Virus record (IMG/VR): IMGVR_UViG_3300045988_177154
Span: 160,001 to 224,000 of that record
Strand: one strand, 5' to 3'
Source: a virus
Length of the DNA: 64,000 nucleotides
How positions within the stretch are numbered: position 1 is the stretch's first letter; the number at the start of each line of letters is the position of its first letter. Below the pieces are notes generated by a model, which made no database searches, was not told the origin of the DNA, and saw nothing but the letters and a program-made list of their open reading frames with translations. Made by a program: the position numbers and the translations under genes. Positions 1,658 to 54,533 of this stretch are shown in pieces.

Positions 1658-2320
1658 ATGAGTAAAAAATACCACATTTCAAAAAATGGAATACCTGCAG
1701 TGTGTCATGCTCAACCGGGTAAATGCCCTATAGGTGGTAATGATGTTCACTTTGATTCTGTTGAAAAAGCTCAAGAATATGCAGATTATCAAAATCATTT
1801 CGAAGCACTGACTGAAAATCTTAATGCGACAGATACCCCGTCTGACCCTATGTATGACATTGTTAGGACAGATAGAGCACAATTAAATCTAAATATGAAA
1901 GGCTCTCAAGTTTATGTTGATACTGTTGATAATGTATTAAGTACAACTTCTGAACCAGATGGCGGAAGTACTTATAATCCTTATGTAAAAACTTCTCCAC
2001 AAGTTGGCTTCTGTTATTCACCTTATCCAGAGCGTTCAGTAGAATTTAGTTCTGTTGATGATTTGACATTAAGCACTTATGACGAATATTGTGAGCAAAA
2101 CAAAGACTTACTTAGTAAAGATAATCATTATGTAGGAACATGGCATGACCCAGCTACAGGTAAAATTTATCTTGATGTATCTATAAATACTATGGATGCT
2201 AAAGAAGCAAGAAAACAATGTGAAGATAATGACCAAATCGCTTACTTTGATTTACAAGATTTTACTTCTGTAACAGTTAATCAAAACGCTACAAGTGGTC
2301 AATCACCTCAAAAAGAATAA
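1658..2320 (+). CDS. HCCH-module family protein 1 (N-terminal YH..G....C......CP.....HF motif; unknown C-terminal domain)
   Basis: The N-terminus KKYHISKNGIPAVCHAQPGKCPIGGNDVHFDSVEKAQEYAD is shared with five other ORFs in the window. Confidence 0.7.
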   Translation: MSKKYHISKNGIPAVCHAQPGKCPIGGNDVHFDSVEKAQEYADYQNHFEALTENLNATDTPSDPMYDIVRTDRAQLNLNMKGSQVYVDTVDNVLSTTSEPDGGSTYNPYVKTSPQVGFCYSPYPERSVEFSSVDDLTLSTYDEYCEQNKDLLSKDNHYVGTWHDPATGKIYLDVSINTMDAKEARKQCEDNDQIAYFDLQDFTSVTVNQNATSGQSPQKE

Positions 2321-2399
2321 ACTTTTCTATTGACAAGTATTATTTCTTGTTGTATAATATAACTATAAAAACAATAAAGAAGAAAAGAGAATAATAGAT

Positions 2400-2648
2400 A
2401 TGAAACAAGAAATCCAAACACAATTACTTAATTTGTCAGAAGAAAAACAAAAAGAACTATATGAACTTACTGTTGCTGTAAGAACTCAATTGGCAAAAGA
2501 AAACAAAAATAAAAAATTGAGCTTAACTTATATGAATCTAAAAAACAAACGTAATGAGTTCATTAGAATCAATATGCCTAATATTGAACGAATTGACCGT
2601 GTGGTAGTTGGAACAATTTGGGCTACACTTTACAATAAATTTTATTAA
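2400..2648 (+). CDS. hypothetical small protein
   Basis: ORF downstream of a TTGACA-N17-TGtTATAAT promoter; terminator follows. Confidence 0.45.
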   Translation: MKQEIQTQLLNLSEEKQKELYELTVAVRTQLAKENKNKKLSLTYMNLKNKRNEFIRINMPNIERIDRVVVGTIWATLYNKFY

Positions 2649-2702
2649 AAAAGCTTTTTAACACAAAGCTTTTTTATTTTAAATAAAAAGGAGTAATATT
2701 AT

Positions 2703-3554: not shown

Positions 3555-3580
3555 GAAATGCTTTAATTAGCATTTCTTAT

Positions 3581-3692
3581 TTTAAGCGATTTTAAGCAGT
3601 TTTTCTTTAAAGTCGATACATTTATCGAAATCACGATTTTAGGATTTTACTGTATTACTAATGACGATATAACAACCCTCAAAATCAGTTTT
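3581..3692 (+). repeat. dispersed intergenic repeat, copy R1
   Basis: Blocks taagcgattttaagc, TCGATACATTTATCGA (3613-3628), tgacgatataac (3662-3673) and aaaatcagtt are shared with copies at 11.8, 26.6, 33.4, 39.5 and 51.2 kb. Confidence 0.85.
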
Positions 3693-3779
3693 ATAAAAAA
3701 TATTTTTAACATTTTTATTGACATTAGTCTAGTTATATAATATAATAGACACAAATATAAAAAAGAAAGTAGGACTACT

Positions 3780-4943: not shown

Positions 4944-4945
4944 AA

Positions 4946-6156: not shown

Positions 6157-6189
6157 AAATGAGTGAACTGATAAAGTTCACTATTTTTT

Positions 6190-9146: not shown

Positions 9147-11762
9147 ATGAAAAAACAAACTATTATTGCCGGAGCTGCTATTCTGGCCTCAACTACTGGA
9201 ACAACTGCATTCGCAGAGGAAGTTAACCCAACTACTCCTCCTACTGAAATTGTAGCCACAACTACAACTGATACAGTAACAACAACTAATAATGTAGCTA
9301 AACCTGTTGAAACAACAGAAGCTACTACTACAACAGAAAATGCTACTCCTATCGAGAAAGCAGAAAAACAAGTAGGAGAAACTGGCAAAGCAGTTACTGA
9401 CGCTGAAAATTCTGCTAAAGAAACTTTCGAAAAAGAAACTCAAGATAAATCTGCTTATGACAAAGCAACAAATGAAGCAAAAAAAGCTCAAGGTGATGTT
9501 GATAAAACAAAAGAAGATTTAACTAATTCTAAAAATAAATTAGCAGAAGATGAATCAAAAGCTCCTCAATTAGAGAAAAAACTTGCTAATGCTAATAAAT
9601 CTGTAACAGATACAGAAAAAGAAATTTCTGATACAAAAAATGATTTGGCAGCTGCTAAAGAAAATCAATCTAATGAAGAAGCTAAAATCCAACCACAAGT
9701 TAATGCTTTGAAGAAAGCTACTACTGACAAAAAGAATGCTCAAGATAAAGTAGATACTATCAAACAAGATTTGAAAACTAATCAAGCAAATGAAGCTACT
9801 TTAACTGGCGAAATCAATGATTTAACTGCTGCTAAAGAAGTTGCTAACAAAGAAGTAACTTCTACAGGCAATGCTTTGGAAAATGCTAAAAAAGCTGACC
9901 AAACTCGTGCTAATAATATTGCTTCACAAAAAACAATTGTAGCACAAGATACAACAGACAAAAATAATTCTATCGCAACAGAAAAAGCAAAAACTGCTGA
10001 AAAAGAAAAATTAGCTACTGATTTGGATTCTGCTAAGAAAGCATTAGCAGACAATTTGGAAATTCCATTAACAGATGCTTATATTTCTGCTCTTAAAGCT
10101 TATAAACAAAACAAAACAACTGCTAACAGTGACGCTGTAAATAAAATTGCTCAAGAAATTCTAAAATCAAAACAAGTTAAAGCTGCAATGGAATTGCTTA
10201 AAGAAAGTGATACACGTGCTGTTGACCCATCTAATCTTACAACTGAACAATTAAAAGAATTGAATATCCGTATGGCTCAATTTATTGAAGATGTACGTAC
10301 TAAATTCGGTACATTCTCTCCAACTATGGTTCGTGTAAGTGAAGAATCAGTAAACCTATCTAAACTTATCGGTGAAACATATAAAAATGCTATTCGTAAA
10401 GCTGCTGGTAATACAAATCCTACTGTATGGAACGCAGCTGAATTAGGCCACTTGAAGAGTAGCGAAACTGTTGGTGCTAACTTAACAAAAGCTGGTTATA
10501 ACACTACAGCTGCTCCAATTCGTATGGAAACACTTGCTTATTCACCTGAAACAGATATGACAACAATGGGTGAACTAAAAGCTGAAGTTTACAACAGCAT
10601 GATTCGTTGGTTGTATGATGATGAATTGAGTGATTGGGGCCATGCTCTTATCCAATCTGGTTTAGTTTGGAACTACAAGAAAACTGAATTACAAACTTTC
10701 GTAGTTCAAGACGGAAGCTACGTGTTGATTGGTGCTGATGAAACAAGCTTGAAAGAGCAAGATAGCAAATTGAAAACTAAAGAGTATGACATTCCAACAA
10801 CAGATTTCAATGCAGCTAACGCTCGTGTAACTACTCTTGAAAAACAAATCGAAACAAACAAAGCTGAATTGGCTCAAGCTACTAAGAATGTAAAAGCTAC
10901 AACTCAAAAACTTGAAGATTCAACAAATGAATTGAAACGTTTAGAAGCAGTTGAGATTCTTACACCAAAAGCTCAAGAAGCTTATGACAATGCAGTTGCT
11001 AAACATACTGATTTATCTAACCAATTAACAGACAAGAAAAATACTCTTGCTACTGTTCAAGCTAAGATTAAAGAATTAAACATTGCTCTTCCACAAGCTG
11101 AAACTGCTTTAGAAAATGCTACAAAAGTTTACGATAATGCTAAATCTGAATATGATAAAGTAAGTGCTGATGTAGAAAAAGCAAAAGCAGAAGTGAAGCG
11201 TATTGAAAATCAATTAGAAACACTTAATGCTAAATTAAAAGACAACAAAGCAAATGTTGCTTCTACTCAAGAAGAAATTGCTAACAACAACAAAGAAATT
11301 GAAACACTAACAAATTCAATTAAAGAACTTGAAAAACAACTTAAAGAGCAAGAAAAAACACTTGAAGAAAAAGTTAAAGTTCAAAAAGAAAAAGAAGCAA
11401 TTTACTTGAAAGCTAAAGAAGCTGCTGATAAAGAACGTGCTAAAATTGCTGAACTTAAAGCAAAACACGAAGAAGCGGTTTCTAAATTAGAAGCATTGAA
11501 AGAAGAACAAGCTCGTAAAGAACAAGAAAAGGCTCGTGAAGAACAACGACAAAGAGAGCTTGAAGATTACAACCGTGCTATTGATGAAGTATTGTATGGA
11601 ACAAATGCTACAACAAATACAACAACTCCTAACAAATCTAAAAACACATTGCCGGTAACTAACACTTCTAATGAATCAATCTATATTGTTTTTGGGGCTG
11701 CTATTCTTGCCTTCCTTGCTGGACTTGGTTTATACTTCAAAAAGAAAAACAAAAAAGACTAA
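9147..11762 (+). CDS. coiled-coil surface protein, PrgA/Sec10 surface-exclusion-like, with a non-canonical LPVTN sorting-like signal
   Basis: Signal peptide and long coiled coils flanking a globular core (LTTEQLKELN..FIEDVR..WNAAELGHL..SDWGHAL). The C-terminus is LPVTN, then a hydrophobic stretch, then KKKNKKD. Confidence 0.55.
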   Translation: MKKQTIIAGAAILASTTGTTAFAEEVNPTTPPTEIVATTTTDTVTTTNNVAKPVETTEATTTTENATPIEKAEKQVGETGKAVTDAENSAKETFEKETQDKSAYDKATNEAKKAQGDVDKTKEDLTNSKNKLAEDESKAPQLEKKLANANKSVTDTEKEISDTKNDLAAAKENQSNEEAKIQPQVNALKKATTDKKNAQDKVDTIKQDLKTNQANEATLTGEINDLTAAKEVANKEVTSTGNALENAKKADQTRANNIASQKTIVAQDTTDKNNSIATEKAKTAEKEKLATDLDSAKKALADNLEIPLTDAYISALKAYKQNKTTANSDAVNKIAQEILKSKQVKAAMELLKESDTRAVDPSNLTTEQLKELNIRMAQFIEDVRTKFGTFSPTMVRVSEESVNLSKLIGETYKNAIRKAAGNTNPTVWNAAELGHLKSSETVGANLTKAGYNTTAAPIRMETLAYSPETDMTTMGELKAEVYNSMIRWLYDDELSDWGHALIQSGLVWNYKKTELQTFVVQDGSYVLIGADETSLKEQDSKLKTKEYDIPTTDFNAANARVTTLEKQIETNKAELAQATKNVKATTQKLEDSTNELKRLEAVEILTPKAQEAYDNAVAKHTDLSNQLTDKKNTLATVQAKIKELNIALPQAETALENATKVYDNAKSEYDKVSADVEKAKAEVKRIENQLETLNAKLKDNKANVASTQEEIANNNKEIETLTNSIKELEKQLKEQEKTLEEKVKVQKEKEAIYLKAKEAADKERAKIAELKAKHEEAVSKLEALKEEQARKEQEKAREEQRQRELEDYNRAIDEVLYGTNATTNTTTPNKSKNTLPVTNTSNESIYIVFGAAILAFLAGLGLYFKKKNKKD

Positions 11763-13292: not shown

Positions 13293-13320
13293 AAGAGAGT
13301 GAAAAATCACTCTCTTTTTT
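13291..13320. terminator. bidirectional terminator between convergent genes
   Basis: Stem aaagagagtga/tcactctcttt flanked by A- and T-runs. Confidence 0.75.
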
Positions 13321-14164
13321 AAGTCCTAATTGTTAAACGAATGCTATCGCCTCTATCATTAAATTTAGAGAACTCATCGTATCTACCTGCATCTTTAAGA
13401 GCTTTTGTATCTACAATATTTTTCGTATATTCTGGCACATATGAAAGTGTTGCAGTACCAACTTTAATTTCATCAACACCTGCTTCTTTCATGTTTTCCA
13501 TAATTTCATTTCGCATTTGTTTTTCTAATTCTTTAGTTTGTTTTAAAGTATCTTCAAATTGTTTTAATTGGCGTAGAGCTTCTCTAGTTTCGTCATTGAT
13601 TTGAGCATTACCATCTTCATCAACACTTAAATTAAAGTTAATTGACTCACCTGATGGCATAACCATACGTTCCTCAAAGCGAATAGCTCTAGCATCTTTT
13701 TCAACATCTAATGAAGTATGCTCTCTCACATTTACTTCTTTTGAATATTGTTCATAAAGACCACTTTCTTTTAATCTTTCTGTATCTACACCAAGAACAG
13801 GTTTACCCTCAATAAATGAGATGCTTCCCACTTCATCTTTGATAGATTTCACATTTAACTCTTTCATAGAGTTAAGGATTTGATTTCTAGCGTTTTCTTT
13901 AATATTATCTAAACGCTTCATAACAATACGCAAGTTATTAAGTTTAACAACTGCTAATTCTGTTTCTTTATCAACTTGAACCCAATTACCACTTCTTGCA
14001 ATTCCAAATGATTGAGCACTTTGTAATTGTTCGTTTAAATCATCAGCAATCGCCATGCCTTCATCAATTGTATTGAAATGGTCAGAAATTGCTCCGTAAG
14101 GGCATGCTTTAGTAGCTCTACATCGCTTTGGTGTTCCGTCTTTTCCAATATGATACTTAGCCAT
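13319..14164 (-). CDS. HCCH-module family protein 2, with an internally duplicated C-terminal domain
   Basis: N-terminus AKYHIGKDGTPKRCRATKACPYGAISDHFNT. Two repeats of about 80 aa (RNQILNSMKE..VDTERLKESGLYEQYSK and RNEIMENMKE..VDTKALKDAGRYDEFSK). Confidence 0.7.
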   Translation of the reverse strand: MAKYHIGKDGTPKRCRATKACPYGAISDHFNTIDEGMAIADDLNEQLQSAQSFGIARSGNWVQVDKETELAVVKLNNLRIVMKRLDNIKENARNQILNSMKELNVKSIKDEVGSISFIEGKPVLGVDTERLKESGLYEQYSKEVNVREHTSLDVEKDARAIRFEERMVMPSGESINFNLSVDEDGNAQINDETREALRQLKQFEDTLKQTKELEKQMRNEIMENMKEAGVDEIKVGTATLSYVPEYTKNIVDTKALKDAGRYDEFSKFNDRGDSIRLTIRT

Positions 14165-14349
14165 TATTCCACCTCATCTTCGTCTAAGTCAATAACTAAA
14201 TCGTCAATAACTAACCTTTTAAGATTATTAGCTTTCATGAAGAAAATTAGTTTTTCTCTTAATACAATCATACTTTCTGCTTGTTTATCTAATTTAGCTT
14301 GGTTATTTTCTAACTTCTCTAAATTAGAGTTAATTTCTGCTTTATTCAT
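14164..14349 (-). CDS. small coiled-coil protein
   Basis: Its stop overlaps the ATG of the downstream gene (TAATG); AGGAG RBS. Confidence 0.45.
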   Translation of the reverse strand: MNKAEINSNLEKLENNQAKLDKQAESMIVLREKLIFFMKANNLKRLVIDDLVIDLDEDEVE

Positions 14350-16127: not shown

Positions 16128-16379
16128 AACTATTGTAAGATAGTTTAAGCATTTGTCAGAACAAGACTTCAAATCCGTACTTGCACCACTACGTACAAAG
16201 CAATCATAAGACCAGTTCATAAGAGTGGATATGAACTACTAAAAGACAGAATGTTAGTTCGATTCTGACAAAAGACTTGTTAATATTTCTTATCATTTGG
16301 CTTAAAGAAGTTTTACAAGGTGACGATGGTTTGGTTCTGAAAAGGCAAAAGGGTTACAATGCCGTTTCTTTTTATTTTT

Positions 16380-16453
16380 GGACCATTAGCTCAATTGGTC
16401 AGAGCACCCGGCTCATAACCGGATGGTTGCAGGTTCGAACCCTGCATGGTCCA
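16380..16453 (+). tRNA. tRNA with CAT anticodon (Ile2/lysidine-type or Met)
   Basis: Cloverleaf GGACCAT..GCTC-AATTGGTCA-GAGC..loop CTCATAA..GCAGG-TTCGAAC-CCTGC..ATGGTCC-A. Closely resembles B. subtilis tRNA-Ile(CAU). CCA is not encoded. Confidence 0.85.
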
Positions 16454-16588
16454 TTCCTAGTTTGGCATATAGTCGACTATGCTAATATTGGTAGGGCCCG
16501 TTAGTGACCCCATATTGAGTTCTAAATCCAGTAACGTAACGGACGATAGTTCTGAATATGAATGTAGGTTCGATTCCTATCTAGGAAA
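16454..16588 (+). ncRNA. 135-nt non-canonical tRNA-like element
   Basis: Perfect 7-bp acceptor-type stem TTCCTAG/CTAGGAA and canonical T-arm GTAGG-TTCGATT-CCTAT. It has a D-arm-like CTA-ATATTGG-TAG but about 60 nt of excess sequence, and I can fold no canonical anticodon arm. Confidence 0.45.
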
Positions 16589-16617
16589 TAAAAATTTAAA
16601 TTTTTTAAATTTTTCTA

Positions 16618-16645
16618 TTGACTTTGCTTAAAATTGTGATATAAT
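16618..16645 (+). promoter_or_regulatory. sigma-A type promoter (extended -10) of the second tRNA unit
   Basis: TTGACT, 16 nt, (TG)aTATAAT. Confidence 0.65.
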
Positions 16646-16693
16646 AATATTATCGGATATGACAAAAGCATCTAAATGATGCTCCTTTCTTAT

Positions 16694-16767
16694 GGCCTGC
16701 TAGCTCAATTGGATAGAGCACACGCCTTCTAAGCGTGCGGTTATAGGTTCGAATCCTATGTGGGCCA
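16694..16767 (+). tRNA. tRNA-Arg (TCT)
   Basis: GGCCTGC..GCTC-AATTGGATA-GAGC..CACGC-CTTCTAA-GCGTG..ATAGG-TTCGAAT-CCTAT..GTGGGCC-A. Confidence 0.9.
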
Positions 16768-17144
16768 TTACTTAGACTCGGACAGCTATCTCATTTAATA
16801 TAGGAAAAATACATTAAAGATACAGTCACCAATTTTTTAAAACAATTTTAAAACGAATTTACGAGTCTAGAATTTAGGAACGAACAGCAATCCTTTTCTA
16901 AACAACTATTAAAGCTAAATAATAATTTGAAATGAAAAAGAGAGTTCCTAGTTTGATTTAAGGGGTTTCTTGTGAAGTTAAATTAGTTCAAAACTAATAA
17001 CTCCTATAAAGCGGGGCCTTTGATTTCCCCCGCTTGAAAATCACTAAAAATAAATGCTCCTAAGAATTTATTTTTTGTTTTTTTCGTTTCTTTTCATTTC
17101 ATTCCGCTTGGGTAATACTTCCTCCTGTTACCCAAGTACATTAT

Positions 17145-17215
17145 TACGGGTTAGTGAAAAGGTATCACATAGGGCTCATTACCCTAAATTGGGGGTTCGA
17201 ATCCCTCGCCCGCAA
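17145..17215 (+). tRNA. tRNA with CAT anticodon and an initiator-like anticodon stem
   Basis: TACGGGT-TA-GTGA-AAAGGTA-TCAC-A-TAGGG-CTCATTA-CCCTA-AATT-GGGGG-TTCGAAT-CCCTC-GCCCGCA-A. It has three G:C pairs at 29-31:39-41, an A-C mismatch at 2:71, and a 4-nt variable loop. Confidence 0.6.
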
Positions 17216-17237
17216 TTTCCATTGGCTACCACCGACA

Positions 17238-17294
17238 AAAAGCTCACTAATTCCAATCATAAAGATTGAAAATTAGTGAGCTTGGTGTTTTTTA
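17238..17294 (+). terminator. terminator of the tRNA unit
   Basis: Long stem agctcactaatt/aattagtgagct plus a T-run. Confidence 0.7.
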
Positions 17295-17317
17295 TAAACA
17301 TGAAAGAAGGTTAATAA

Positions 17318-18424
17318 ATGAAATATAGTTACTCATACTATAATGAAGAAGATTTTGATACTTATGTTAAACAATTTGATAATTATTCTTTGCTTCAAAG
17401 TAGAGAATGGGGTGCAGTAAAAAGCCCTATATGGAAAAATAAAAAAGTTTTATTCTATGAAAATGAAAAAGTAGTAGGAACTGCCCTAATTCTTATTAGA
17501 GAAATTGCTTTTCATAAAAACTTTATCTACATTCCTTATGGGCCGCTTTTTGATTATTCTAATAAAGAATTATTTAACTTTGTAACAGAAAGCTTAAAGA
17601 AAATTGCTAAAGAAAATAAAGCAATTTTTGTAAAAGTAGTTCCACCTGTATTTGATGATAATTCTATTAGTGTCGATTTCAAAATTAACGGTTGGGTAGA
17701 AAATGTTACTGAAAAATCTTTTGATTCTATTCAACCAAAATTAAATGCTGTAATTAAAGATTTCAAAATGAGTAAAAGAATGAAACAAGAAAGACGAACA
17801 ACAGAAAATAAAAATGTACATTCTGTTTATTCTATTGACACTGAAGCTTCTTTTGAAACATTATTACATGATTTTTATTCTTTGACTAAATTAACTGAAA
17901 AAAGACAAGGTATTAAATTAAGAAATAAAGATTATTTCAGACAATTACTATATAGATACCCAAATTCATTCATTACTGTTTCTTATATTGATAAGGAAAA
18001 ACAAATTGCTAAATTAAATGAAGAATATAATAAATCAAATAGTGAAAAAGCTAAACAAGAATTAGAAAAACTTAAACATAATCAAGCTAAAAACATTCCG
18101 ATTTCAGGCACTCTTACTGTAATTTATGGAGATACGGCAGAATTACTCTATGCGGGATTTGACGATAATTTCAAATCATATAATTCTGCTTCTTATTCTT
18201 GGAGTAATTCTATTATGAAAGCTTTTGAGCTTAATCCTAATCTTAAATATGTAAATTTAGGTGGAGTAGAAAATGATGGGCACTTGCTAAACTTTAAAAA
18301 GAAATTCCACCCAGAGATTAGAACTTCTTGTAATGAATTTGATTTACCAATTAGTCCTTTATACTATTTATTCAAATTTGCTCTAAAACATAAGAAACTT
18401 ATTCTCAAATTTATCAAAAAATAA
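17318..18424 (+). CDS. FemAB/MurM-family aminoacyl-tRNA-dependent peptidoglycan branch peptide transferase
   Basis: N-terminal pattern F..YV.....LLQSREWGAVKS..W......Y.....VG.ALILIR.......IYIPYGP..DY, plus a central coiled-coil insert, as in FemX/MurM. Confidence 0.75.
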   Translation: MKYSYSYYNEEDFDTYVKQFDNYSLLQSREWGAVKSPIWKNKKVLFYENEKVVGTALILIREIAFHKNFIYIPYGPLFDYSNKELFNFVTESLKKIAKENKAIFVKVVPPVFDDNSISVDFKINGWVENVTEKSFDSIQPKLNAVIKDFKMSKRMKQERRTTENKNVHSVYSIDTEASFETLLHDFYSLTKLTEKRQGIKLRNKDYFRQLLYRYPNSFITVSYIDKEKQIAKLNEEYNKSNSEKAKQELEKLKHNQAKNIPISGTLTVIYGDTAELLYAGFDDNFKSYNSASYSWSNSIMKAFELNPNLKYVNLGGVENDGHLLNFKKKFHPEIRTSCNEFDLPISPLYYLFKFALKHKKLILKFIKK

Positions 18425-18563
18425 AATTACTTGATATAATATATAAAGAGGGGTTAACTACTACTCTTCTTTATATATTGATTGTCAATAAATTTAATCT
18501 TAATGGTTGCAAAATAAATTTATTTTTGATACAATATTTAAAATGATATTTTATAAACTTTTT

Positions 18564-18652
18564 GGAGAGGTACTCAAGTCTGGTTAAGAGGACGGTTTGC
18601 TAAGCCGTTAGGTCGTTAATTCGGCGCGTGGGTTCGAATCCCATCCTCTCCA
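18564..18652 (+). tRNA. tRNA-Ser (GCT), class II with a long variable arm
   Basis: GGAGAGG..anticodon loop TTGCTAA..variable arm..GTGGG-TTCGAAT-CCCAT..CCTCTCC-A. A TTGCAA-N17-TACAAT promoter lies upstream. Confidence 0.9.
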
Positions 18653-18696
18653 TATTTTATACATTAAAAAACTTTCAATAAGAAAGGAGCATAACT

Positions 18697-20611
<1,915 letters not shown>

Positions 20612-21825: not shown

Positions 21826-22635
21826 ATGGCTTATCATGTATCATCTAAAGGAATTTTGACTGTATGTAAAGCCCAACCAGGTAAATGCCCATTGGGTGGT
21901 AAACATTTTGAAAATGAATCCGCGGGAATGGAATACTTAGACAATCTAAATAACAAAGAAAGCTTAATCGAAAAATTCAAAAATGCTCCAACACCAGGTG
22001 CTAGAATAAGATTAAGAAAAGAAATTAGATTATTAAATCAAGCATTAGGCTTAGAAGATGATGCCGATATTCCAGCTCCTCAACCGTCAAAAGAACAACT
22101 AGAAAGAGAAAGACGAATTAAGGAAAGAGAAATAGAAGAAGCTAAAAAAGAAAAAGAAATGGCCGAGAACTTAAAAGAATTTGAAAATAAAGAGTTCTTA
22201 TCTATTCCAAAAAATATAGAAAATTTAAGAAGTAATTATTTATTTAAAGAAAATTATTTCTCTCGTCAAGCTATGTATAAATCAACTTATAGGGGCGAAC
22301 AGAGTAGAGAAAATAGAGACCATAATACAGGTACTGCTATGTATGGCCAAGGAAGATACTCTACTACAAATAGAAAATACGCTTCAAAATTTGGAGAAGT
22401 CAGAACCGTTGATTATGAAGAAATGCCATCTAAACCTCTATCATTCAAAAATGCGACTGCTTTTGAAATGTTTGAACAAGAACTTGCAAGAGAACATAAC
22501 ATAGATAAAAGGCATATGTACCGTAATCAAGATTTATCAGAAATTATTAAAAAGATGGGCTATAATGGAGTAACAATTGGGCCTAAATCGGATATGGTTA
22601 TTGTTTCTTATGAGACTAAAATGAAAAATACTTAA
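21826..22635 (+). CDS. HCCH-module family protein 3, with a possible ADP-ribosyltransferase-like C-terminal domain
   Basis: N-terminus AYHVSSKGILTVCKAQPGKCPLGGKHFEN. The C-terminus has YRG ... YSTT ... EQE in the order and spacing of an R-S-E ART triad. Motif-level evidence only. Confidence 0.6.
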   Translation: MAYHVSSKGILTVCKAQPGKCPLGGKHFENESAGMEYLDNLNNKESLIEKFKNAPTPGARIRLRKEIRLLNQALGLEDDADIPAPQPSKEQLERERRIKEREIEEAKKEKEMAENLKEFENKEFLSIPKNIENLRSNYLFKENYFSRQAMYKSTYRGEQSRENRDHNTGTAMYGQGRYSTTNRKYASKFGEVRTVDYEEMPSKPLSFKNATAFEMFEQELAREHNIDKRHMYRNQDLSEIIKKMGYNGVTIGPKSDMVIVSYETKMKNT

Positions 22636-23840: not shown

Positions 23841-24323
23841 ATGAATGGAATTGTTAAAAATGAATATACTGAAATTCAAAAGTATTTTGATGATTACTAT
23901 AAAGAACAATTAGAAAAATATGAAGAGTTGAAGTATTATGATAATTACTTATTTACGAACATTGAGGACGAACCAATTTATTGGGGATTTGGTATTATTG
24001 TTCTAATATTAGTTAGTATAATAGCTGACAAGTCTCAATATGAATTTTGGAACTATGTGTTTTTTGCAGTTTTAGGAATTTTTATTTTATTCACAATTTT
24101 AATATTCTTCAAAGCTGTATTTTGGAATTATGAGTTTAAAAAATCTAAAAAGACTTTCTTTAAACATTATTATAAATCTAAAAATATTAGAACAGTAACA
24201 AGATATTTAGGTGTTAATAAATCAGATTTGCTTTTTAATGAAGATTATATTATAATCGGTCTTAATATTAAAGATGAAAAACAACTAAATAAACTAGAAA
24301 GAGAACTTAAAAATGGAAAATAA
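23841..24323 (+). CDS. tandem-paralog 2-TM protein, member 1 of 5
   Basis: Same architecture as the next four ORFs: conserved N-terminal segment of about 35 aa, two TM segments, and a conserved C-terminal segment. Confidence 0.6.
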   Translation: MNGIVKNEYTEIQKYFDDYYKEQLEKYEELKYYDNYLFTNIEDEPIYWGFGIIVLILVSIIADKSQYEFWNYVFFAVLGIFILFTILIFFKAVFWNYEFKKSKKTFFKHYYKSKNIRTVTRYLGVNKSDLLFNEDYIIIGLNIKDEKQLNKLERELKNGK

Positions 24324-24873
24324 TTTAGTAGAACTTAAATACGATAAAGTAAATGAATATTTTGAGAATTTCAAGAAGAAATATACAAGTAATTATGAAG
24401 AAAACAAAACAAAAGGCTATCGTACTGTAATTCCTTATCGTATGTTAATCAGTCCCACTATTATGAGTGTAATTAGTATCGTTGTTGCTTATGTAACAAA
24501 TACTATATTATCAGATTTACCAAAAATAAACTCGAATGATACAGCTGGGGCAATATATAGTATATATGAAGTTTTAGTATCATGGATATTTCCAGTAATG
24601 ATTCTTACTTCATTATCTCACCTTTTAGTAACTTTTGTTAGAATGGGGTTCAATTCTTATGACGTACCTATTTCTTACAAAAAAATAGACTACTATAATA
24701 AAATCAAAACAAGAATGTTAAATGAGATACAAACAGATTTAAACACTCCAATTACAGAGAATATGCTTATTTTAGATGCAAATGGGTTGATTGTTGCTCC
24801 TAATCTAAGTAATAATGAAAACAAAAAGATTTTTGGAGAAATAGAAAGGAATCTTAAAACAAGTGAAAAATGA
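24313..24873 (+). CDS. tandem-paralog 2-TM protein, member 2 of 5
   Basis: MENNLVELKYDKVNEYF...ITENMLILDANGLIVAPNLSNNENKKIFGEIERNL; overlaps both neighbours. Confidence 0.65.
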   Translation: MENNLVELKYDKVNEYFENFKKKYTSNYEENKTKGYRTVIPYRMLISPTIMSVISIVVAYVTNTILSDLPKINSNDTAGAIYSIYEVLVSWIFPVMILTSLSHLLVTFVRMGFNSYDVPISYKKIDYYNKIKTRMLNEIQTDLNTPITENMLILDANGLIVAPNLSNNENKKIFGEIERNLKTSEK

Positions 24874-25432
24874 TTTAGTAGAACTAAAACTTGATAGAAT
24901 TGACCGCTATTTTGAAAAATTTAAAACAAAATATAAACTTCATTATGAACTTAATAAAACAAATAAGACACATTTGGTATTACCTTATCAGAAGTTAATA
25001 ATGCCTGTAATATTTATTTTTATTGGTATTATTACTTTTCTTATGACTCGTGTTATATATTGGCAAATAAGCAATTTTTCATCTAGCATGACATTATCAA
25101 GTTTTAATGAAGCTGCAATGTTGCTCATAAATATTTTATCTATTGTTTTATTGGGTGTACTCTCACTTTTGATTGTGACTCATCTTATTGACTTTTTTAA
25201 AAATATTCATAAAGAAACTATTGAATATACGAAAAAAGAATACTACAACAAAATTAAATCTATTATGATTGAGCAAATCCAATCAGAATTAAGTAATCTA
25301 ATTACTGAAGATATGCTTACATTTGATTTAGATGGGTTAATTATAGCTCCAAACTTAAATACTAATGAAAATATAAAGTTATTTAAAGAAATAGAAAGGG
25401 ATTTAAAGTTAAATGAGCAACAATCTCATTGA
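24863..25432 (+). CDS. tandem-paralog 2-TM protein, member 3 of 5
   Basis: MKNDLVELKLDRIDRYF...ITEDMLTFDLDGLIIAPNLNTNENIKLFKEIERDL. Confidence 0.65.
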   Translation: MKNDLVELKLDRIDRYFEKFKTKYKLHYELNKTNKTHLVLPYQKLIMPVIFIFIGIITFLMTRVIYWQISNFSSSMTLSSFNEAAMLLINILSIVLLGVLSLLIVTHLIDFFKNIHKETIEYTKKEYYNKIKSIMIEQIQSELSNLITEDMLTFDLDGLIIAPNLNTNENIKLFKEIERDLKLNEQQSH

Positions 25433-47684: not shown

Positions 47685-48491
47685 TCAAATACTTTTATTC
47701 TTTAATATTTTTATTTTCTTTTTAAGCTTTTTGTCAGTTAAGTTATCTTCATTTACTTTCTTGAATGAAACTAAAATCGAAGCATCTGTATAATCCCAAA
47801 TATTTTCAGTTTCATCATTTGTTACAATATAAGCTCTGGGATTATGGTCAGAAATTCTAACTAGAAAATTATCTCCTTTAGCTTCATTTATATCCGGTCT
47901 TATTCTATATTCATAACCATTTCTATCTAAGTAATCAACAGTATCTTTCAATGAGGATTTATCGAATAAGAAATAAGAACTTGCTGAAGCTCTTGAAAAA
48001 GATTTGTCTGTAATATTCTTTTCATTGTGGAAATAAAGTTTAGAAGCTTGCTCTCTATATTCAATAATGTTATTGAACTCCTCTTGGAGTTTTTTAGATT
48101 TTTCTCTTTCTGCTTTGTAAAAGTTATCATGTTCTTTGAAGTTTGCAATAAATTCTTCTTTAGTAGGACATTTTCGTTTATTTCTTTTCATAACTTTTTG
48201 GAGTTTTTCATATTGAGAATTAGCTTGTTCTAGTAATAATTCTTCTCTATATTTTGCTTTATTTAAACGAACTTCCATATTTTGCGTATCAACTATTTCT
48301 TCAATTTTACAATGTTTATACAAAGTAACTTCTGTTGTTATATTTCTAGCAATAAAATCATTCAAATTATCTGAATATAATTGAGCTTTCTCTACTGTAT
48401 CAAAATGAGGTGAAATACTTTCATAAGGACAGTTACCTTTCTTAGCTTTACAAATACTTGGTTTACCATTTGGCCCAACATGATAAGTCAT
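47685..48491 (-). CDS. HCCH-module family protein 4
   Basis: N-terminus TYHVGPNGKPSICKAKKGNCPYESISPHFDTVEKAQLYSD. Confidence 0.7.
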   Translation of the reverse strand: MTYHVGPNGKPSICKAKKGNCPYESISPHFDTVEKAQLYSDNLNDFIARNITTEVTLYKHCKIEEIVDTQNMEVRLNKAKYREELLLEQANSQYEKLQKVMKRNKRKCPTKEEFIANFKEHDNFYKAEREKSKKLQEEFNNIIEYREQASKLYFHNEKNITDKSFSRASASSYFLFDKSSLKDTVDYLDRNGYEYRIRPDINEAKGDNFLVRISDHNPRAYIVTNDETENIWDYTDASILVSFKKVNEDNLTDKKLKKKIKILKNKSI

Positions 48492-49053: not shown

Positions 49054-50193
49054 ATGTATCATATTAACCATGAGGGAGAAGTTAAAAAATGTAGAGCATT
49101 TATTCGTCCTTGCCCTTACTCTAAAGATAAACATTTCAGAACACAATTTGAAGCTATGCAAGAAGCTGCTGAATTAAGAACTGCTTATGAATTTAAAATT
49201 AAATCTATTCTACAAGAACTAAAAATGCTTGATAAGTATTATGAAGAAGCAGAAAGAGATTATCAAGATTTAAATATTGTAAAAGAAGAAGTTAAAAATA
49301 TAGTTGGTAATAAACCAGGTATGAATAGACATTATAGAGAAGTTGTATGTAATTTACTTGGTGATGAAATTGGTAATCCAATTAGCACATCAAAAGGAAT
49401 AGTAAAATACTTCAAAGATAATAATAGGTCTTTTCTTTTAAATAATTTTGACGAAGTAGAAGCAGAAGCTATTTCAGATGTTAGTAGAATTATGGATAGT
49501 ACAGAATCTTTCAGAGACCCTAGCAAAAAATACTCTGTTTATTATGATGAAGTGCAAAGAAGAATGAGAAATACTAAAGAAATGATTGAAGCATGCCATG
49601 AATTAGGTATTAGTATTGATACATATAACTTTGAATATGTTGTTGGTGATGACCACCCATTTGATTTTTTTAACTCTGTTACTGTTGATGAAAATGGTGA
49701 AATCAATAATTTGTATTATTTGGGATTGGAAGGCCAAAATTTCCATGCTGAGCCATCTAAAGTAACAAAAATTGAAAACAATTTATTATATACAGAAAAT
49801 CACCCAGAAGGTTTATTCTTACCATTAACTTATCAAGAGAAAAATAGACCTGTTAAAGATACTGCAAGAGCTATTTTCTTTAGAGATAAAAATGCTAAAG
49901 GAACTCATGTAGATTTTGCTAATAATAAGTTTTGGAATACTAATCCTATTGAATGGGATTCAGAAGTTGATGATACAGATTCAGATTTAAAATGGGGAAT
50001 TGATAAGAACTATGATTATCATGACTCAAATCAATTGAAAGATTTCTCAACTATCATGAAAAGAAAAGATATGCAAGGAAAAGATAGTTTTACATTCACT
50101 AAATCTGCTGTTTTACCAAAAATGACTAAAGCTGAAGCTATTGAAGATGCTAATAGAAGATTAAAAGAAGCTCGTGAAGAATGGCCATTTTAA
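49054..50193 (+). CDS. HCCH-module family protein 5 (divergent)
   Basis: N-terminus MYHINHEGEVKKCRAFIRPCPYSKDKHFRTQFEAMQEAAE. Confidence 0.65.
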   Translation: MYHINHEGEVKKCRAFIRPCPYSKDKHFRTQFEAMQEAAELRTAYEFKIKSILQELKMLDKYYEEAERDYQDLNIVKEEVKNIVGNKPGMNRHYREVVCNLLGDEIGNPISTSKGIVKYFKDNNRSFLLNNFDEVEAEAISDVSRIMDSTESFRDPSKKYSVYYDEVQRRMRNTKEMIEACHELGISIDTYNFEYVVGDDHPFDFFNSVTVDENGEINNLYYLGLEGQNFHAEPSKVTKIENNLLYTENHPEGLFLPLTYQEKNRPVKDTARAIFFRDKNAKGTHVDFANNKFWNTNPIEWDSEVDDTDSDLKWGIDKNYDYHDSNQLKDFSTIMKRKDMQGKDSFTFTKSAVLPKMTKAEAIEDANRRLKEAREEWPF

Positions 50194-50356: not shown

Positions 50357-50812
50357 ATGAAATTTTACTATCACAACTTTAAAGATTTAAGAGGAAACCA
50401 CATTAAATATTTTGCTAATGGAGATGATTTTAAAGTAGAAGAAGTTTTTACTACTATCTCACACAAAAACGTTTTAAGAGGTTTTCATACATCAAGCAAA
50501 CAAGAAAAACTTATCAAAGTATTAAATGGTTCATTACATCTAATTACTGTAAATGAAGAAACAAAAGAAATTACTCATTATGACATGAATGTTGATTCTG
50601 AGCCAATCTTTATTCCATTGAATACTTGGGTGGGCTATGTTATCAAAGAAAACAATACAATTGTTAATTATATTTGCTCTGGTAAATTCTCACCTGAAAC
50701 AGATTTAACTTGCTCTCCTAAATCATTCGCAAATGAATGGCTATGGCCTATTCCTTATTCAGATATTATCATTTCTGAAAAAGACGACCAGGCAGAAATC
50801 AGAACTTTATAA
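50357..50812 (+). CDS. RmlC-like cupin (dTDP-sugar epimerase/isomerase-like)
   Basis: F.DLRG......F........SHKNVLRGFH......KLI.V..G.......; 151 aa, shorter than canonical RmlC. Confidence 0.5.
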   Translation: MKFYYHNFKDLRGNHIKYFANGDDFKVEEVFTTISHKNVLRGFHTSSKQEKLIKVLNGSLHLITVNEETKEITHYDMNVDSEPIFIPLNTWVGYVIKENNTIVNYICSGKFSPETDLTCSPKSFANEWLWPIPYSDIIISEKDDQAEIRTL

Positions 50813-50849
50813 AAGAAAAGGATTTTTTAATCCTTTTCTTTTTTTGAGC

Positions 50850-51095: not shown

Positions 51096-51189
51096 TTCGT
51101 AAGCTCTTACGAGCATCACTCGCTGAATTAAGTAAGTAAAATGCTTTAAGGAGTATTTTTTATTTTAGAGAAATGCTCTAATTAAATAT

Positions 51190-51340
51190 GAGGGTTGTTA
51201 TATCGTCATATAGTTAATGCTAAAACAGTAAAATCATAATTTCGATAAATGTATCGACTTTTAACAAAAACAGCTTAGAGTCGCTTATTTTACAGTTTAA
51301 AACAAAAAGAAAAAGAGCTATAAAATATAGCTCTTTTTAT
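51190..51340 (-). repeat. dispersed intergenic repeat, copy R8 (inverted), including the ligA terminator
   Basis: Reverse complement of the R7 unit: gagggttgttatatcgtca, TCGATAAATGTATCGA (51242-51257), cagcttagagtcgcttattttacag, and terminator aaagagctataaaatatagctcttt. Confidence 0.85.
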
Positions 51341-53265
51341 AATTTATCCTTTGAAAATTCTTCAAAATTCATAATTGGAATATTTAATGAAATTGCTTTT
51401 TTCAATTTGCTTGACATTTTCGTTTTATCTTCAGTTAATAAAACATTAGTATCTTTATTGATTGATTTAGTAAAAATCCAACCTTGTTTTTCAAGTTCTG
51501 AAATCAATTCATCTCTATTCTTAAAGTTTTGAGGAACTTTGCCTGTATGACAATAATAACCTTTAACAGTAATATTATCAGATTTATTCATAACACAACC
51601 AATATTATTTAATTCATTGAATGTTGCTTTTGCAATTTCAAAATATTCTTCAAAACTCTTAACAAAAGCATTACCTAAACCGTTAATTGATTTAATTTTT
51701 TCAATAGATTTATTTTTATCAGAGAATAGCTCTTCAAGTGAATTAAATTCTTTGAGGATTTTCTTGGCAGTAACACTTCCAAGTGTTGGAATACCGAAAG
51801 ATAATAACCAACGATAAGGTTGAGTATCATTTTTAGCTTTTTGAATGTTATCATAAATAAGTTTAGCTCTTGTTTTACCGAGAGAAACACCACTTGAATC
51901 AAATTTAACTTCTTCTAATTCTTTCAAATCTAAGTTCATTAAATCAACTACAGATTCTAATTTCAATGCTTTAAGAACTTCACCTGATAATCCGTCAATA
52001 TCTAAACATTGTTTAGAAACAATATTGGTCATCATATAACTTTTTCTTGATTCACAATTAGGATTCAAACAGAATAAATCTTTACTTTCTTGACCTTGTT
52101 CATTATATTTATAATCAAGTGCATTGTTACAATAAGGACAAACTTTAGGAATTTCAAGTTCTTCATCTGATTCTTTAGTTGTCATAACAATAGCTGGAAT
52201 AACATCATTAGCACGTTTAACAAGAACTTCTGCACCTTTAGAGATTTTCTTTTCTTGTAACCATTTGAAATTGTTTCCAGTAATGTTAGTAATTGTTACA
52301 CCATCAATTGTAATGGGGGAAATCTTAACTCTAGGAGTAATTTTCCCAGTATTACCGATTGTGAATGAAATATCTTCTACTTTTGTTACTTTTTGTTCCC
52401 CTGGGTATTTAAAGGCAATATACTCTTTAGGGTGGTGACTTGTTTCACCAATTTTGATTTGCTCATTTGGTTTAATTACGATACCATCTGTTGGAGCAGA
52501 GCATTCCATTCGCCAAATTTTAGCTTGTTCAATATTTTCAGCTAATTCTTCAAAAGTTGAAGCACTATTTTTAGGGAATAAATCTTTAGCAGAAAATACA
52601 TTAGTAGGAATTTCTATAAATTCATCATTTTGGTCAACTGCAAAATATGTAGCAAAAGATAATTTAGCATTGAAATCTAAGCCTAATTTTCCTTTTGATA
52701 CAATTCCAGCAACTGCACTTCGTTCATTTGAATATTTATCATTAACTTTATTTTGATTGTTAATAATTAAATCAGATTTACTGCTATATAATTCGCCACG
52801 TAATTCTTTAATATTTGCATTAGGTTGTTGTAGTGGTAAATTCTCAATAGTAAGTTTGTCTGACTCAATAAGATAAGTTACGTTCTCACCAACTTCTCCA
52901 TTTCCACGAGTTGATAAGATAACTTCATTATCAGAAATATAATGAACTGACAAGGCCAAACCGTCTAATTTTGGTTCAATTGAATAAGTTTTAGCTCCAT
53001 GAGATTTAGTTTCATCATAGTATTTATTTACTTCTTGGATTGAATTAGCTTTTTTCAATGATTTCATTGGTTTAGCATGGTGAACTTCATTATTAACATC
53101 AATTTCAATACCATCATTGATTTCTGTATCTTGGATTAGCCATCCATTTTCTTCGGCTAATTGTGTCAATGAATCATATTCTTCATCAGTTAAAAGTAAT
53201 TCTTGGTTATTGTAATAAGCTTCAGAAGCATTTTTTAATAATTCTAGCAATTCTTCTTTTTGCAT
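51337..53265 (-). CDS. ligA: NAD-dependent DNA ligase
   Basis: Adenylation motif EPKLDGLA, OB fold, Cys4 zinc finger (CPYC...CLNPNC), HhH region and a BRCT-like C-terminus. Confidence 0.9.
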   Translation of the reverse strand: MQKEELLELLKNASEAYYNNQELLLTDEEYDSLTQLAEENGWLIQDTEINDGIEIDVNNEVHHAKPMKSLKKANSIQEVNKYYDETKSHGAKTYSIEPKLDGLALSVHYISDNEVILSTRGNGEVGENVTYLIESDKLTIENLPLQQPNANIKELRGELYSSKSDLIINNQNKVNDKYSNERSAVAGIVSKGKLGLDFNAKLSFATYFAVDQNDEFIEIPTNVFSAKDLFPKNSASTFEELAENIEQAKIWRMECSAPTDGIVIKPNEQIKIGETSHHPKEYIAFKYPGEQKVTKVEDISFTIGNTGKITPRVKISPITIDGVTITNITGNNFKWLQEKKISKGAEVLVKRANDVIPAIVMTTKESDEELEIPKVCPYCNNALDYKYNEQGQESKDLFCLNPNCESRKSYMMTNIVSKQCLDIDGLSGEVLKALKLESVVDLMNLDLKELEEVKFDSSGVSLGKTRAKLIYDNIQKAKNDTQPYRWLLSFGIPTLGSVTAKKILKEFNSLEELFSDKNKSIEKIKSINGLGNAFVKSFEEYFEIAKATFNELNNIGCVMNKSDNITVKGYYCHTGKVPQNFKNRDELISELEKQGWIFTKSINKDTNVLLTEDKTKMSSKLKKAISLNIPIMNFEEFSKDKL

Positions 53266-53342
53266 ATATTTTCCCCTTTCTTCAATAATTTTATTATAAC
53301 AAAAAATATAATAAAAGTCAAAAAAGATAACAACAAAAGTTG

Positions 53343-54533
53343 CTATTTGTTGTTATCTTCGAAGTGTATAGTTTTTAAACCACCCCACGGTTGTAGAGTT
53401 TCATCATTTCTTTCTATTTCTAAGAAAGTATAATTGTCATGTAAATCAGCTCTTTTTTCAGAATTTCTTGTAGTTAAAGATTTTCTAAATCCAGCATAAT
53501 CAATGACATCAACTTTTTCACCAGCAGAGAATCCAACAACTTTATAAAGCTTATTATCATCTGCCATTAAATAAACATTATCAATTTCATTATTTTTCAT
53601 TTTTGGATTAAGTTTTAAATCATAATCGCCAGTTGATGGCAAATCTGTTGAATTGATACGTTTAACAAATTTTGGTTCTTCATCAATATATTTAGAGAAG
53701 TTATTTCTGATAGCCATTTCTCTATTTAATTTAGCAAGAATTTCTTTTCTAGTATTATTAGACTCTTTCAATTCAATTTTATTAGCACGTTTTAATTGAA
53801 CTGTTGGTTTAGCTGTTTGTTTCAACATTTCAAATCTTGCTTTAGCTTGTTGTTCTAAATGATTGTTGAGTTCTTCATCAGTAATAGTTGCTAATTTATA
53901 TTTTTCTACGTTTTTATCAATTTCTTTTTTATAAATAGCTACAGCTTCTTTAAAATTTTGTGCATATCTTGAAGTTAGAACTTTATTATAAAATCTATCA
54001 TGTAAATGAGCTCTATTATTTAAATCTATTTGATTATTTTCATCAAGGAAGTACTCATCACAAAAGAGCTTTGCTATTTTATTATTAGTAATATTTTCAA
54101 TTAAACCTTTTGGTACATTATTTTTCCACGGACGAAAATCAAAAGTCTTTCTTGCATTAACTACTTCACTTATATAAGATTGATTTTCTGCTATTATTTC
54201 ATTTTGAGCTCTTTCATATAATTCTTGTAATTCTTCTTGTGATAAAGCTTCATTAACAGGTTTTTGATTACTTTCAATAGCATTATGCTCTTTATTCAAT
54301 TCATCTAAAACAATTCTTCTATAAATTCTTAATTCTTTGTTACTTAAATTTTCATATGGATGATATTCCATAGCTTTATTTAGGTCTATTTCTACTTGCA
54401 TTTTAAAATCAGACATATATTGTGCTGATTCAAAACTATCCAAATGTTCATCTTCTGAAGCAAAAGGGCAACGACCTGATTTAGCCATACATTCACTAGG
54501 AACACCATTATTGTTTATATGGTATTTAGTCAT
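53343..54533 (-). CDS. HCCH-module family protein 6
   Basis: N-terminus TKYHINNNGVPSECMAKSGRCPFASEDEHLDSFESAQYMSD. Confidence 0.7.
   Translation of the reverse strand: MTKYHINNNGVPSECMAKSGRCPFASEDEHLDSFESAQYMSDFKMQVEIDLNKAMEYHPYENLSNKELRIYRRIVLDELNKEHNAIESNQKPVNEALSQEELQELYERAQNEIIAENQSYISEVVNARKTFDFRPWKNNVPKGLIENITNNKIAKLFCDEYFLDENNQIDLNNRAHLHDRFYNKVLTSRYAQNFKEAVAIYKKEIDKNVEKYKLATITDEELNNHLEQQAKARFEMLKQTAKPTVQLKRANKIELKESNNTRKEILAKLNREMAIRNNFSKYIDEEPKFVKRINSTDLPSTGDYDLKLNPKMKNNEIDNVYLMADDNKLYKVVGFSAGEKVDVIDYAGFRKSLTTRNSEKRADLHDNYTFLEIERNDETLQPWGGLKTIHFEDNNK

Follow-up and report, generated by a model that had tools for sequence, protein, structure and literature searches.

A widespread N-terminal Cys/His module on polymorphic proteins of a giant, probably Inocle-type extrachromosomal element: a possible docking handle

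Proteins in which a constant terminal handle is joined to variable cargo are already known in kind. LXG is an N-terminal trafficking domain of the type VII secretion system (T7SS), and XVIPCD is a C-terminal tag of the effectors of the Xanthomonas type IV secretion system (T4SS). Polyvalent proteins of mobile elements were described as early-phase effectors that are delivered with DNA (Iyer et al. 2017, PMC5512222); according to the same source they carry 2-15 effector domains per giant polypeptide, often together with a processing metallopeptidase, and effector sets arriving with incoming DNA are an established theme. Inocles, giant extrachromosomal elements of oral streptococci, were described in 2025 and reported in ~74% of people, and most of their genes are unannotated (Kiguchi et al., PMC12340149). 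They measure 245-395 kb at 24-32% GC, have VirB4/VirD4 in all contigs, carry tRNAs and insertion sequence (IS) elements and disappear on liquid culture (PMC12340149). Here we analysed a 64,000-nucleotide stretch (the window) of an element of this size class, positions 160,001 to 224,000 of the IMG/VR record IMGVR_UViG_3300045988_177154, in which six open reading frames (ORFs) begin with the same Cys/His module of ~45 residues. As in the LXG toxins and the XVIPCD effectors, a constant terminal domain is joined to unrelated cargo, several paralogues are present per genome and the same element appears to encode a secretion or transfer system. Unlike in these systems, the module is Cys/His-based and unrelated in sequence and fold, it is N-terminal where XVIPCD is C-terminal, no T7SS genes were seen, adjacent immunity genes are not evident, and most of the cargo is not a recognisable toxin. 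With the polyvalent proteins the module proteins share their occurrence on mobile elements and part of their cargo (an ART-PolyVal-like fold, a zeta-toxin-type kinase and a Pol-β-type nucleotidyltransferase), but they bear a single cargo behind a common handle. A term search of the text of PMC5512222 returned neither "knuckle" nor "Zn-ribbon", and "zinc" only within zincin-type peptidases. On the present sequence comparisons, what appears to be new is the domain.

An earlier note on this DNA, made from its letters alone, had claimed that six ORFs open with one module. All six are present in the ORF list of the window at the coordinates it gave, with translations identical to the N-termini it quoted (members 1 to 6, Table 1), and the claim is confirmed by two kinds of search. 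With all filters disabled, a hidden Markov model (HMM) of the six N-termini matched, among the 1,095 stop-to-stop segments in the six frames of the window, these six alone (70.9-85.7 bits, E 1e-21 to 1e-25), and the runner-up segment reached 2.9 bits. In all-versus-all BLASTP of the 74 non-overlapping window ORFs, the six are joined to one another (E 3.5e-13 to 7e-4) by a shared N-terminal stretch of ~45-60 residues. The module is borne by 6/74 ORFs in 64 kb. In the alignment of the first ~55 residues, the columns Y, H, G, C, A, C, P and H do not vary. The core of the consensus that had been proposed is correct, but the Pro after the Gly varies (Leu in member 3, Val in member 5), and the spacing from CP to the following His is x4-x6 among the six instead of x5-7. 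Likewise, the C-terminal parts are for the most part dissimilar, as had been stated, except that the pairs 4/6 and 2/5 show a weak similarity (~31% identity in BLASTP) that reaches residue ~110 in a helical linker. No common sequence was found in the 150 nt upstream of the six genes, and the module is therefore repeated at the level of the protein and not as a DNA cassette; a common promoter or DNA cassette was dropped for the same reason. At least one of the module genes overlaps its upstream ORF, and others come after intergenic regions. Orthologues are 83-94% identical in >100 assemblies.

The module extends far beyond the window. Among 1.84 billion representative proteins, searched exhaustively with the module profile, 3,636 clusters have the module at E<=1e-3, and 530 of them pass E<=1e-10. 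Motif statistics were taken from the 145 best representatives (46-487 aa, median 234 aa), 144 of which have the full motif. Of these 144, 138 (96%) have the motif from residue 3-5 onward, and 133 (92%) have a spacing of exactly H-x9-C-x6-C-x7-H. In 85 of the 93 module ORFs of the fetched loci, the aligned module begins at the nearest Met. In an alignment of 87 modules chosen from the strongest database matches, the columns H, C, A, C, P and H do not vary, and conservation exceeds 90% at G10, P12, G25, A37 and D42. Conservation also includes polar and charged positions: K/R at position 3 (90%), Q38 (90%), D42 (95%) and N45 (75%), as well as K8 and K/R16 in the knuckle half. The mean net charge is +2.1 for the first 29 residues and -2.7 for residues 30-49, which carry E35, E36, Q38, D42 and N45.

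AlphaFold2, given a 40-sequence alignment, predicted a confident structure of the module (predicted local distance difference test, pLDDT, 80.7), with a β-hairpin (residues 4-7 and 13-16), a C-P-x-G-G knuckle loop, a β-bridge at H-F and a helix (35-57). We infer that H, C, C and H jointly hold one structural Zn2+, because the His and the first Cys point to one side of the modelled hairpin and because C-P-x-G-G turns are characteristic of knuckles. Four conserved Cys/His ligands at fixed spacing, the general mark of a zinc finger or zinc knuckle, are present. The four invariant Cys/His, the C-P-x-G turn and the predicted β-hairpin followed by a helix recall zinc knuckles, zinc ribbons and treble-clef fingers, whereas the H-C-C-H order, the 9/6/7 spacing and the lack of a significant match among solved structures set the module apart. 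As far as the libraries searched go, it lies outside all described families: Pfam-A 2025, NCBIfam 20.0, PHROGs v4 and PDB sequences gave no match covering it. The module is thus a conserved N-terminal domain with invariant H, C, C and H for which no family can be named, as the earlier note had it.

Searched singly against Pfam at E<=10, the 87 modules gave sub-threshold matches to DUF7552, DUF2188 and DUF7336 alone; SPOR and NDUFS4 were added when the same modules were joined into two strings for mapping. The DUF7552 matches map to module residues 18-42, and those of the other four families, which are small β-α domains, to the segment H-F-x-[ST]-x-E-E-A-Q-x-Y-A-D-K (residues 27-47), with which they share a ~20-residue strand-helix motif, F-x-[ST]-x-x-E-A-x-x-x-A. 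Presumably, DUF2188 opens with an H-V…G hairpin as well (alignment A14). It differs from the module in that the Cys/His knuckle half has no counterpart and that six plasmid DUF2188 proteins are stand-alone (~74 aa). DUF2188 has been tied to conflict systems (bioRxiv 10.1101/2022.04.27.489752, citing Burroughs & Aravind 2020). Assignment of the module to DUF2188 (PF09954) was rejected: the best E value was 0.0018, matches were obtained for 5/87 modules, covered only profile positions 21-41 of the ~62 that make up the domain and remained under the Pfam cut-off, and hhalign against the six plasmid proteins gave 35.7% probability over 20 columns. Also rejected was a His-Me/HNH-like ββα nuclease, considered for its His on β1 and downstream helix, with no HNH family in the Pfam, PHROGs or Foldseek output. 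DUF4379, a guess from the literature, was dropped as baseless.

The combination of a constant N-terminal module with unrelated C-termini, first noticed in the six, holds database-wide: 129 C-terminal tails fell into 67 single-linkage BLAST components. Family members are 46-508 aa long and have at most one recognisable cargo region each. A Pfam domain was found in just 4/116 full-length representatives (Zn_ribbon_Top1, RNase_T, LysM, DUF7307), and few of these representatives match PHROGs. Among 65 further members from metagenome loci there are two PolyA_pol/CCA-adding enzymes with HD domains, two RNase_T exonucleases, and one each of a Zeta_toxin/AAA_33 kinase, a TopoI-type Zn ribbon, a HEAT-repeat protein and an Sm-like domain. 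The architecture of polymorphic toxins (constant N-terminus, variable C-termini, several paralogues per genome) is thus found, and toxin-like cargo is represented by weak ART-like and zeta-toxin cases only. Calling the proteins an effector family, as was proposed, captures the polymorphic architecture and the several paralogues per genome, but some of the relatives carry ordinary enzymes, and given CCA-adding enzymes and DEDD exonucleases as cargo the term may over-read them.

The AlphaFold2 model of member 3, built with 14 homologues (pLDDT 85.1), comprises the module, long helices (31-121) and a C-terminal α/β domain (~125-262). In these homologues R156-G-E, N-T-G, Y-x-T180-T181, V-R193 and E199-x-P of the α/β domain are invariant, and E217-Q218 is conserved. 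R156, T180/T181 and E199 could form a catalytic triad of the R-S/T-E type, as had been suspected from the sequence. Foldseek against BFVD matched the model to a "PolyVal ADP-ribosyltransferase" (E 7.4e-3, probability 0.89, with a TMq of just 0.25) and to an "ART-PolyVal-like" protein (E 0.29), and the homologue P0329 has a weak PARP match in Pfam (E 0.05). An ART-PolyVal-like fold (ART, ADP-ribosyltransferase) is therefore possible for this domain, although not established. The orthologue of member 3 in one related locus (L002) is split into ORFs of 99 and 158 aa and may be a pseudogene. Two stretches of the C-terminus of member 2 match phrog_6244 (E 2.6e-27), and this C-terminus also has weaker matches to phrog_434 (E 7.7e-9), the Mu Gam-like phrog_253 (E 2.9e-5) and families of the RecE region; a Sipho_Gp157 match (E 2e-4) lies under the Pfam cut-off. 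A 61-aa ORF overlaps the start codon of member 2 (Table 1), and its membership in the module system is uncertain. The C-terminal domain of member 1 (~100-211) resembles phrog_17808 (function unknown; E 3.5e-5), and its C-terminal part is 39% identical to P0071. Member 4 shares its C-terminus, an orphan fold, with P0024, P0064 and P0140, and the C-termini of members 5 and 6 are likewise orphans, the former with homologues solely in close relatives of the element. The gene of member 6 lies directly upstream of that of the NAD-dependent DNA ligase. PADLOC defence models found nothing significant on the six members.

The element that carries the six genes is likely to be an oral streptococcal Inocle. 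We favour this identification because the element agrees with the Inocles in size, in GC content, in its plasmid-like set of genes and in being missing from collections of plasmids and phages: genes identical to those of the window occur on 313-341 kb contigs in many independent assemblies, at 29% GC, and the Inocle-like features include tRNA genes, a VirD4-type coupling protein nearby, gyrase-like, exonuclease and NrdH-like genes and streptococcal-type surface proteins (AgI/II, G5, MucBP). VirB4-like AAA_10 proteins were met only in metagenome relatives, and in this respect the comparison with the Inocles is less complete. The earlier note had proposed to look for enrichment of the module on phages or plasmids, and none is apparent in the curated collections: the consensus module gave no tblastn match in the INPHARED phages (50,697 GenBank records) or the PLSDB plasmids, and when the first 25 kb of the window were compared with both by megablast, an rfbA-like gene was the sole match. 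The module family marks giant uncultured extrachromosomal elements instead of curated phages and plasmids, and is a multi-copy signature of giant, low-GC, T4SS-encoding elements of this type. A term search of the text of PMC12340149 returned no mention of the module family; the protein families of that paper, defined at 50% identity, probably overlook proteins that share just 45 residues.

It is tempting to speculate that the module is a zinc-stabilised N-terminal docking handle for polymorphic cargo, with the DNA-transfer or establishment pathway as the favoured partner, and we give this reading a probability of roughly 45%. The β-hairpin and the C-P-x-G-G knuckle would pack on the conserved acidic amphipathic helix (E-E-A-Q-x-Y-A-D-K-x-N-E), and a flexible or coiled-coil linker would join this domain of 45-50 residues to one of many cargo domains. 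Each cargo protein could then bind one conserved partner through the same rigid, metal-stabilised domain, and a changing set of enzymes would be brought to one place. A single conserved partner is suggested by the conservation of K3, K8, K/R16, Q38, D42 and N45 at the sequence level. In its strict confinement to the N-terminus and its polymorphic cargo, the module resembles trafficking or recruitment domains. Potential partners are the coupling protein, the relaxosome or the transferred DNA. A partner in transfer or establishment is slightly favoured because the type of element and the effector-like cargo (ART-like, Gam/Gp157-like, zeta-type kinase, nucleotidyltransferase, exonuclease) parallel the polyvalent proteins, and the cargo might act as early-phase effectors, parallel to polyvalent proteins and to XVIPCD- and LXG-tagged effectors.

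Several points weigh against a docking handle of this kind. The T4SS signals that we know of lie within the protein or at its C-terminus, and a folded metal domain at the N-terminus is not among them. Zinc binding is deduced from the sequence, and the model of the module matched nothing significant in PDB by Foldseek (best E 1.5, a Kunitz-type inhibitor; Nop10-like E>3). The ART assignment of member 3 is weak: Pfam yielded no ART family at E<=10, and neither a profile search nor Foldseek found a match in PDB. CCA-adding enzymes and DEDD exonucleases would be useful cargo in the resident cell without any transfer. The module genes are scattered among housekeeping-like genes, none beside the coupling protein, and immunity-type partner genes are not obvious. 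Moreover, InoC (~454 aa, N-terminal PF13814) was not found in the window or the surrounding stretches (~3,300 to ~72,000), and the Inocle identity is thus unconfirmed by this marker. A stricter version, in which the module is the recognition tag of a hitherto undescribed delivery route and loads a large, rapidly changing set of effectors onto the T4SS of giant Gram-positive conjugative elements, so that ART-like, nuclease-inhibitor-like, tRNA-repair and kinase proteins would be injected with the DNA for establishment, appears unlikely.

The strongest alternative is a small zinc knuckle that binds nucleic acid and either tethers enzymes to DNA, tRNA or RNA or heads regulators of the element, without any trafficking. 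Small Cys/His knuckles often bind nucleic acids, and bacterial one-component regulators combine an N-terminal DNA-binding head with a variable C-terminus. The knuckle half of the module is basic and keeps K3, K8 and K/R16, and the recognisable cargo mostly acts on nucleic acids (CCA-adding enzyme, RNase_T, TopoI-type Zn ribbon, Sm-like, Gp157/Gam-like and zeta/PNK-like kinase), a bias based on very few annotated cases. The conserved helix is, however, strongly acidic and leaves the whole module about neutral; some 96% of the modules stand at the protein start, whereas accessory nucleic-acid-binding zinc fingers are not usually confined to residue 1; and Pfam, PDB sequences and Foldseek showed no likeness to known nucleic-acid-binding zinc fingers. 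We regard such a knuckle as possible, if doubtful, and as nearly as likely as a partner in the transfer pathway. The probability falls further for a packaging tag, again for a cap with a redox or stability function, and is lowest for an artefact.

N-terminal capsid-targeting sequences occur in T4-like and jumbo phages, and the module might be such a tag on proteins injected with the genome if the element were a jumbo phage. UniProt contains a protein with 100% identity to member 3 (A0A8S5RW20, entered as "Siphoviridae sp. ctHip2" and found with Foldseek in BFVD), and related contigs of 71-315 kb are listed as viral genomes in IMG/VR (loci L013 and L083-L087). An ART-PolyVal-like cargo would also suit injected proteins such as T4 Alt (PMC5512222). 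However, capsid, portal, terminase and tail families are lacking among 65 window ORFs searched with PHROGs and in the Pfam tables of the neighbouring genes, a conjugative-type coupling protein lies nearby, and tblastn found the module in none of the GenBank phage records. Inocles, with VirB4/VirD4 throughout, were 16-fold enriched in cell pellets over 0.45 µm filtrates (PMC12340149). A phage with a packaging tag is thus improbable, and for the same reasons (no virion genes in the window, a conjugative coupling protein nearby) giant elements appear to be mislabelled as phages in public catalogues, as in the UniProt entries A0A8S5RW20 and A0A8S5RV53 and the IMG/VR contigs.

More improbable still is a regulatory cap, either a redox- or metal-sensing Cys/His switch or a tag for degradation or stability. 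The invariant Cys and His pairs could sense oxidants or metal and the strict N-terminal place would fit a degron-like role, redox genes are abundant in the window (thioredoxin reductase, glutaredoxin, TelA), and Inocles were proposed to help oxidative-stress tolerance (PMC12340149). The motif has no precedent as a cap, however, the conservation of Q38, D42, N45 and K3 favours a binding interface over a switch alone, and no associated protease or adaptor is in evidence. Finally, the idea that the likeness is a chance or compositional artefact, or a repeated DNA cassette devoid of functional meaning, is already refuted: an AT-rich window (29% GC) does generally inflate K/N/I-rich similarity, but the gap between the six HMM scores and 2.9 bits for the best other segment, Cys/His/Gly/Pro columns that stay invariant across thousands of proteins from elements of 25-40% GC, the unshared upstream DNA and the well-conserved orthologues exclude it.

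Relatives were found in further collections. A scan of GTDB with one genome per species and two narrow patterns (HINK[HN]GVP and APC[KR]A[KT]xGNC), which gives a lower bound, found at least 6 loci with the common sub-family in two metagenome-assembled genomes (MAGs), a "Clostridiales bacterium" and a "Bacilli bacterium". The former (DUQJ01, "Clostridiales bacterium AS08sgBPME_396", loci L007-L011) has at least 9 copies, often adjacent, on small contigs of ~30% GC. A scan of JGI metagenomes returned 58 loci, mainly from one series of related samples. The neighbours of the module genes in the JGI loci (L018-L065) are NrdD/G, Pol III α, LigA, MetK, RtcB, thymidylate kinase, FtsK, DUF285, AAA_10 (VirB4-like), a T2SSE ATPase and four pilin-like proteins. 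The relative loci have 2-4 module genes each, with 3-4 per 10-21 kb in L011, L014 and L028 and as many as four in 13-21 kb in the latter two, and in L014 a CCA-adding enzyme itself bears the module. A group of ~244 kb contigs of 25-26% GC in IMG/VR has a YHVKKDG sub-family of the module, and its size and GC content are those reported for Inocle-δ. Since Inocle-like gene sets with module genes occur in other metagenomes, the class of giant elements seems to extend beyond the element of the window and its habitat.

The window has 27-33% GC (29% overall) and is ~86% coding. Its annotated genes encode FolD, TelA, glutaredoxin, PspC, a methyltransferase, FemAB, RmlA/B/C, thioredoxin reductase, FtsK/SpoIIIE, a HAD phosphatase, a 5'-3' exonuclease, NDK, DHFR, CHAP, G5/CAP and MucBP surface proteins, HU, the NAD-dependent ligase, a Ro60/TROVE-like protein, a PD-(D/E)XK nuclease, a GyrB-type topoisomerase and the AgI/II adhesin. 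The ORFs downstream of the members are either of housekeeping type (thioredoxin reductase, RmlC, LigA) or small and without annotation. The FtsK/SpoIIIE ATPase adjoins no member. Past the window end, the coupling protein comes after a DnaG-type primase and an RNase_T exonuclease that stands alone, without the module (Table 1).

Other features of the element are added here for the record. The antigen I/II adhesin, of which the window holds the start, is a streptococcal-type surface protein and supports a Streptococcus host. Four tRNA genes (Met-CAT, Arg-TCT, Met-CAT, Ser-GCT) are interleaved with a FemAB-family gene. Three tandem paralogous ORFs (32-43% identity) sit in a run of five ORFs of similar size for which no Pfam families are on record, and form a second local paralogue family. 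The gene of the Ro60/TROVE-like protein (DUF2828/DUF7788; phrog_850 "RNA-binding protein", E 3e-102) is directly followed by those of the PD-(D/E)XK nuclease and the GyrB-type topoisomerase II subunit, and no Y-RNA-like Rfam family reached the threshold in the window. The dTDP-rhamnose genes are split, with RmlC between members 5 and 6 and no RmlD seen in the window. Two ORFs of ~871 aa have no Pfam family and no mutual BLAST similarity; the first has weak JetC/MukB-like and LmuB matches (E 9e-10), probably a mere SMC-like coiled coil. IS607-like (serine resolvase and OrfB/TnpB) and IS200/IS605-like insertions vary between otherwise syntenic copies of the element.

Table 1. Positions of the module genes and of other features of the element. 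Positions are those of the window unless a locus is named.
Feature	Position	Strand	Length	Remarks
Member 1	1658-2320	+	220 aa	module residues 1-46 (nt 1658-1795); H-x9-C-x6-C-x7-H; 85.7 bits
Member 2	13319-14164	-	281 aa	module residues 1-45 (nt 14030-14164); C-x5-C variant; 76.3 bits
61-aa ORF	14164-14349	-	61 aa	stop overlaps start codon of member 2; gene call in 4/4 related assemblies
Member 3	21826-22635	+	269 aa	module residues 1-43 (nt 21826-21954); 70.9 bits
Member 4	47685-48491	-	268 aa	module residues 1-45 (nt 48357-48491); 85.1 bits
Member 5	49054-50193	+	379 aa	module residues 1-42 (nt 49054-49179); most divergent of the six; 74.3 bits
Member 6	53343-54533	-	396 aa	module residues 1-46 (nt 54396-54533); HL replaces HF; 81.3 bits
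CCA-adding enzyme with module	L014 (ERZ778524):4237-5763			relative locus
DnaG-type primase and RNase_T exonuclease	L076:16439-19420			from 2.4 kb past window end
Coupling protein, VirD4-type (TrwB_AAD_bind/TraG-D_C)	L076:19453-21717 (~window 69409-71673)		754 aa	starts 5.4 kb past window end
FtsK/SpoIIIE ATPase	29196-30899			
NAD-dependent DNA ligase	51337-53265			
Four tRNA genes	16379-18653	+		
FemAB-family gene	17318-18424			
RmlA and RmlB	18697-20611			
RmlC	50357-50812			
Three tandem paralogous ORFs	24313-25997	+	186, 189, 194 aa	flanks 23841-24323 and 25990-26508
ORF without Pfam family	9147-11762	+	~871 aa	
ORF without Pfam family	55159-57777	+	~871 aa	
Ro60/TROVE-like protein	57841-59304	+		
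PD-(D/E)XK nuclease	59362-59964			
GyrB-type topoisomerase II subunit	59957-62074			
Antigen I/II adhesin	62326-64000	+	1,277 aa	Adhesin_P1_N, AgI_II_C2, Antigen_C; cut by window end
IS insertion	L001:5837-7820			
IS insertions	L017:10397-12185 and 17843-19778			
IS insertion	L015:5803-7277			

For the biology of these elements, the module family may rank among the larger paralogous groups of Inocle-type elements. The partner of one small domain would give an experimental entry to the biology of the element, in place of the study of hundreds of orphan proteins. The module profile is also a sensitive marker that has already retrieved relatives from other metagenomes, one MAG and contigs apparently mislabelled as siphoviruses, and the family offers several thousand novel cargo domains for cataloguing, which probably take part in the interplay of element and host. 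If the handle were a transfer signal, it would be, to our knowledge, the first N-terminal folded signal of such kind for a Gram-positive T4SS; and if the module should prove to be a delivery tag, its profile would become a search key for a hidden class of elements across habitats.

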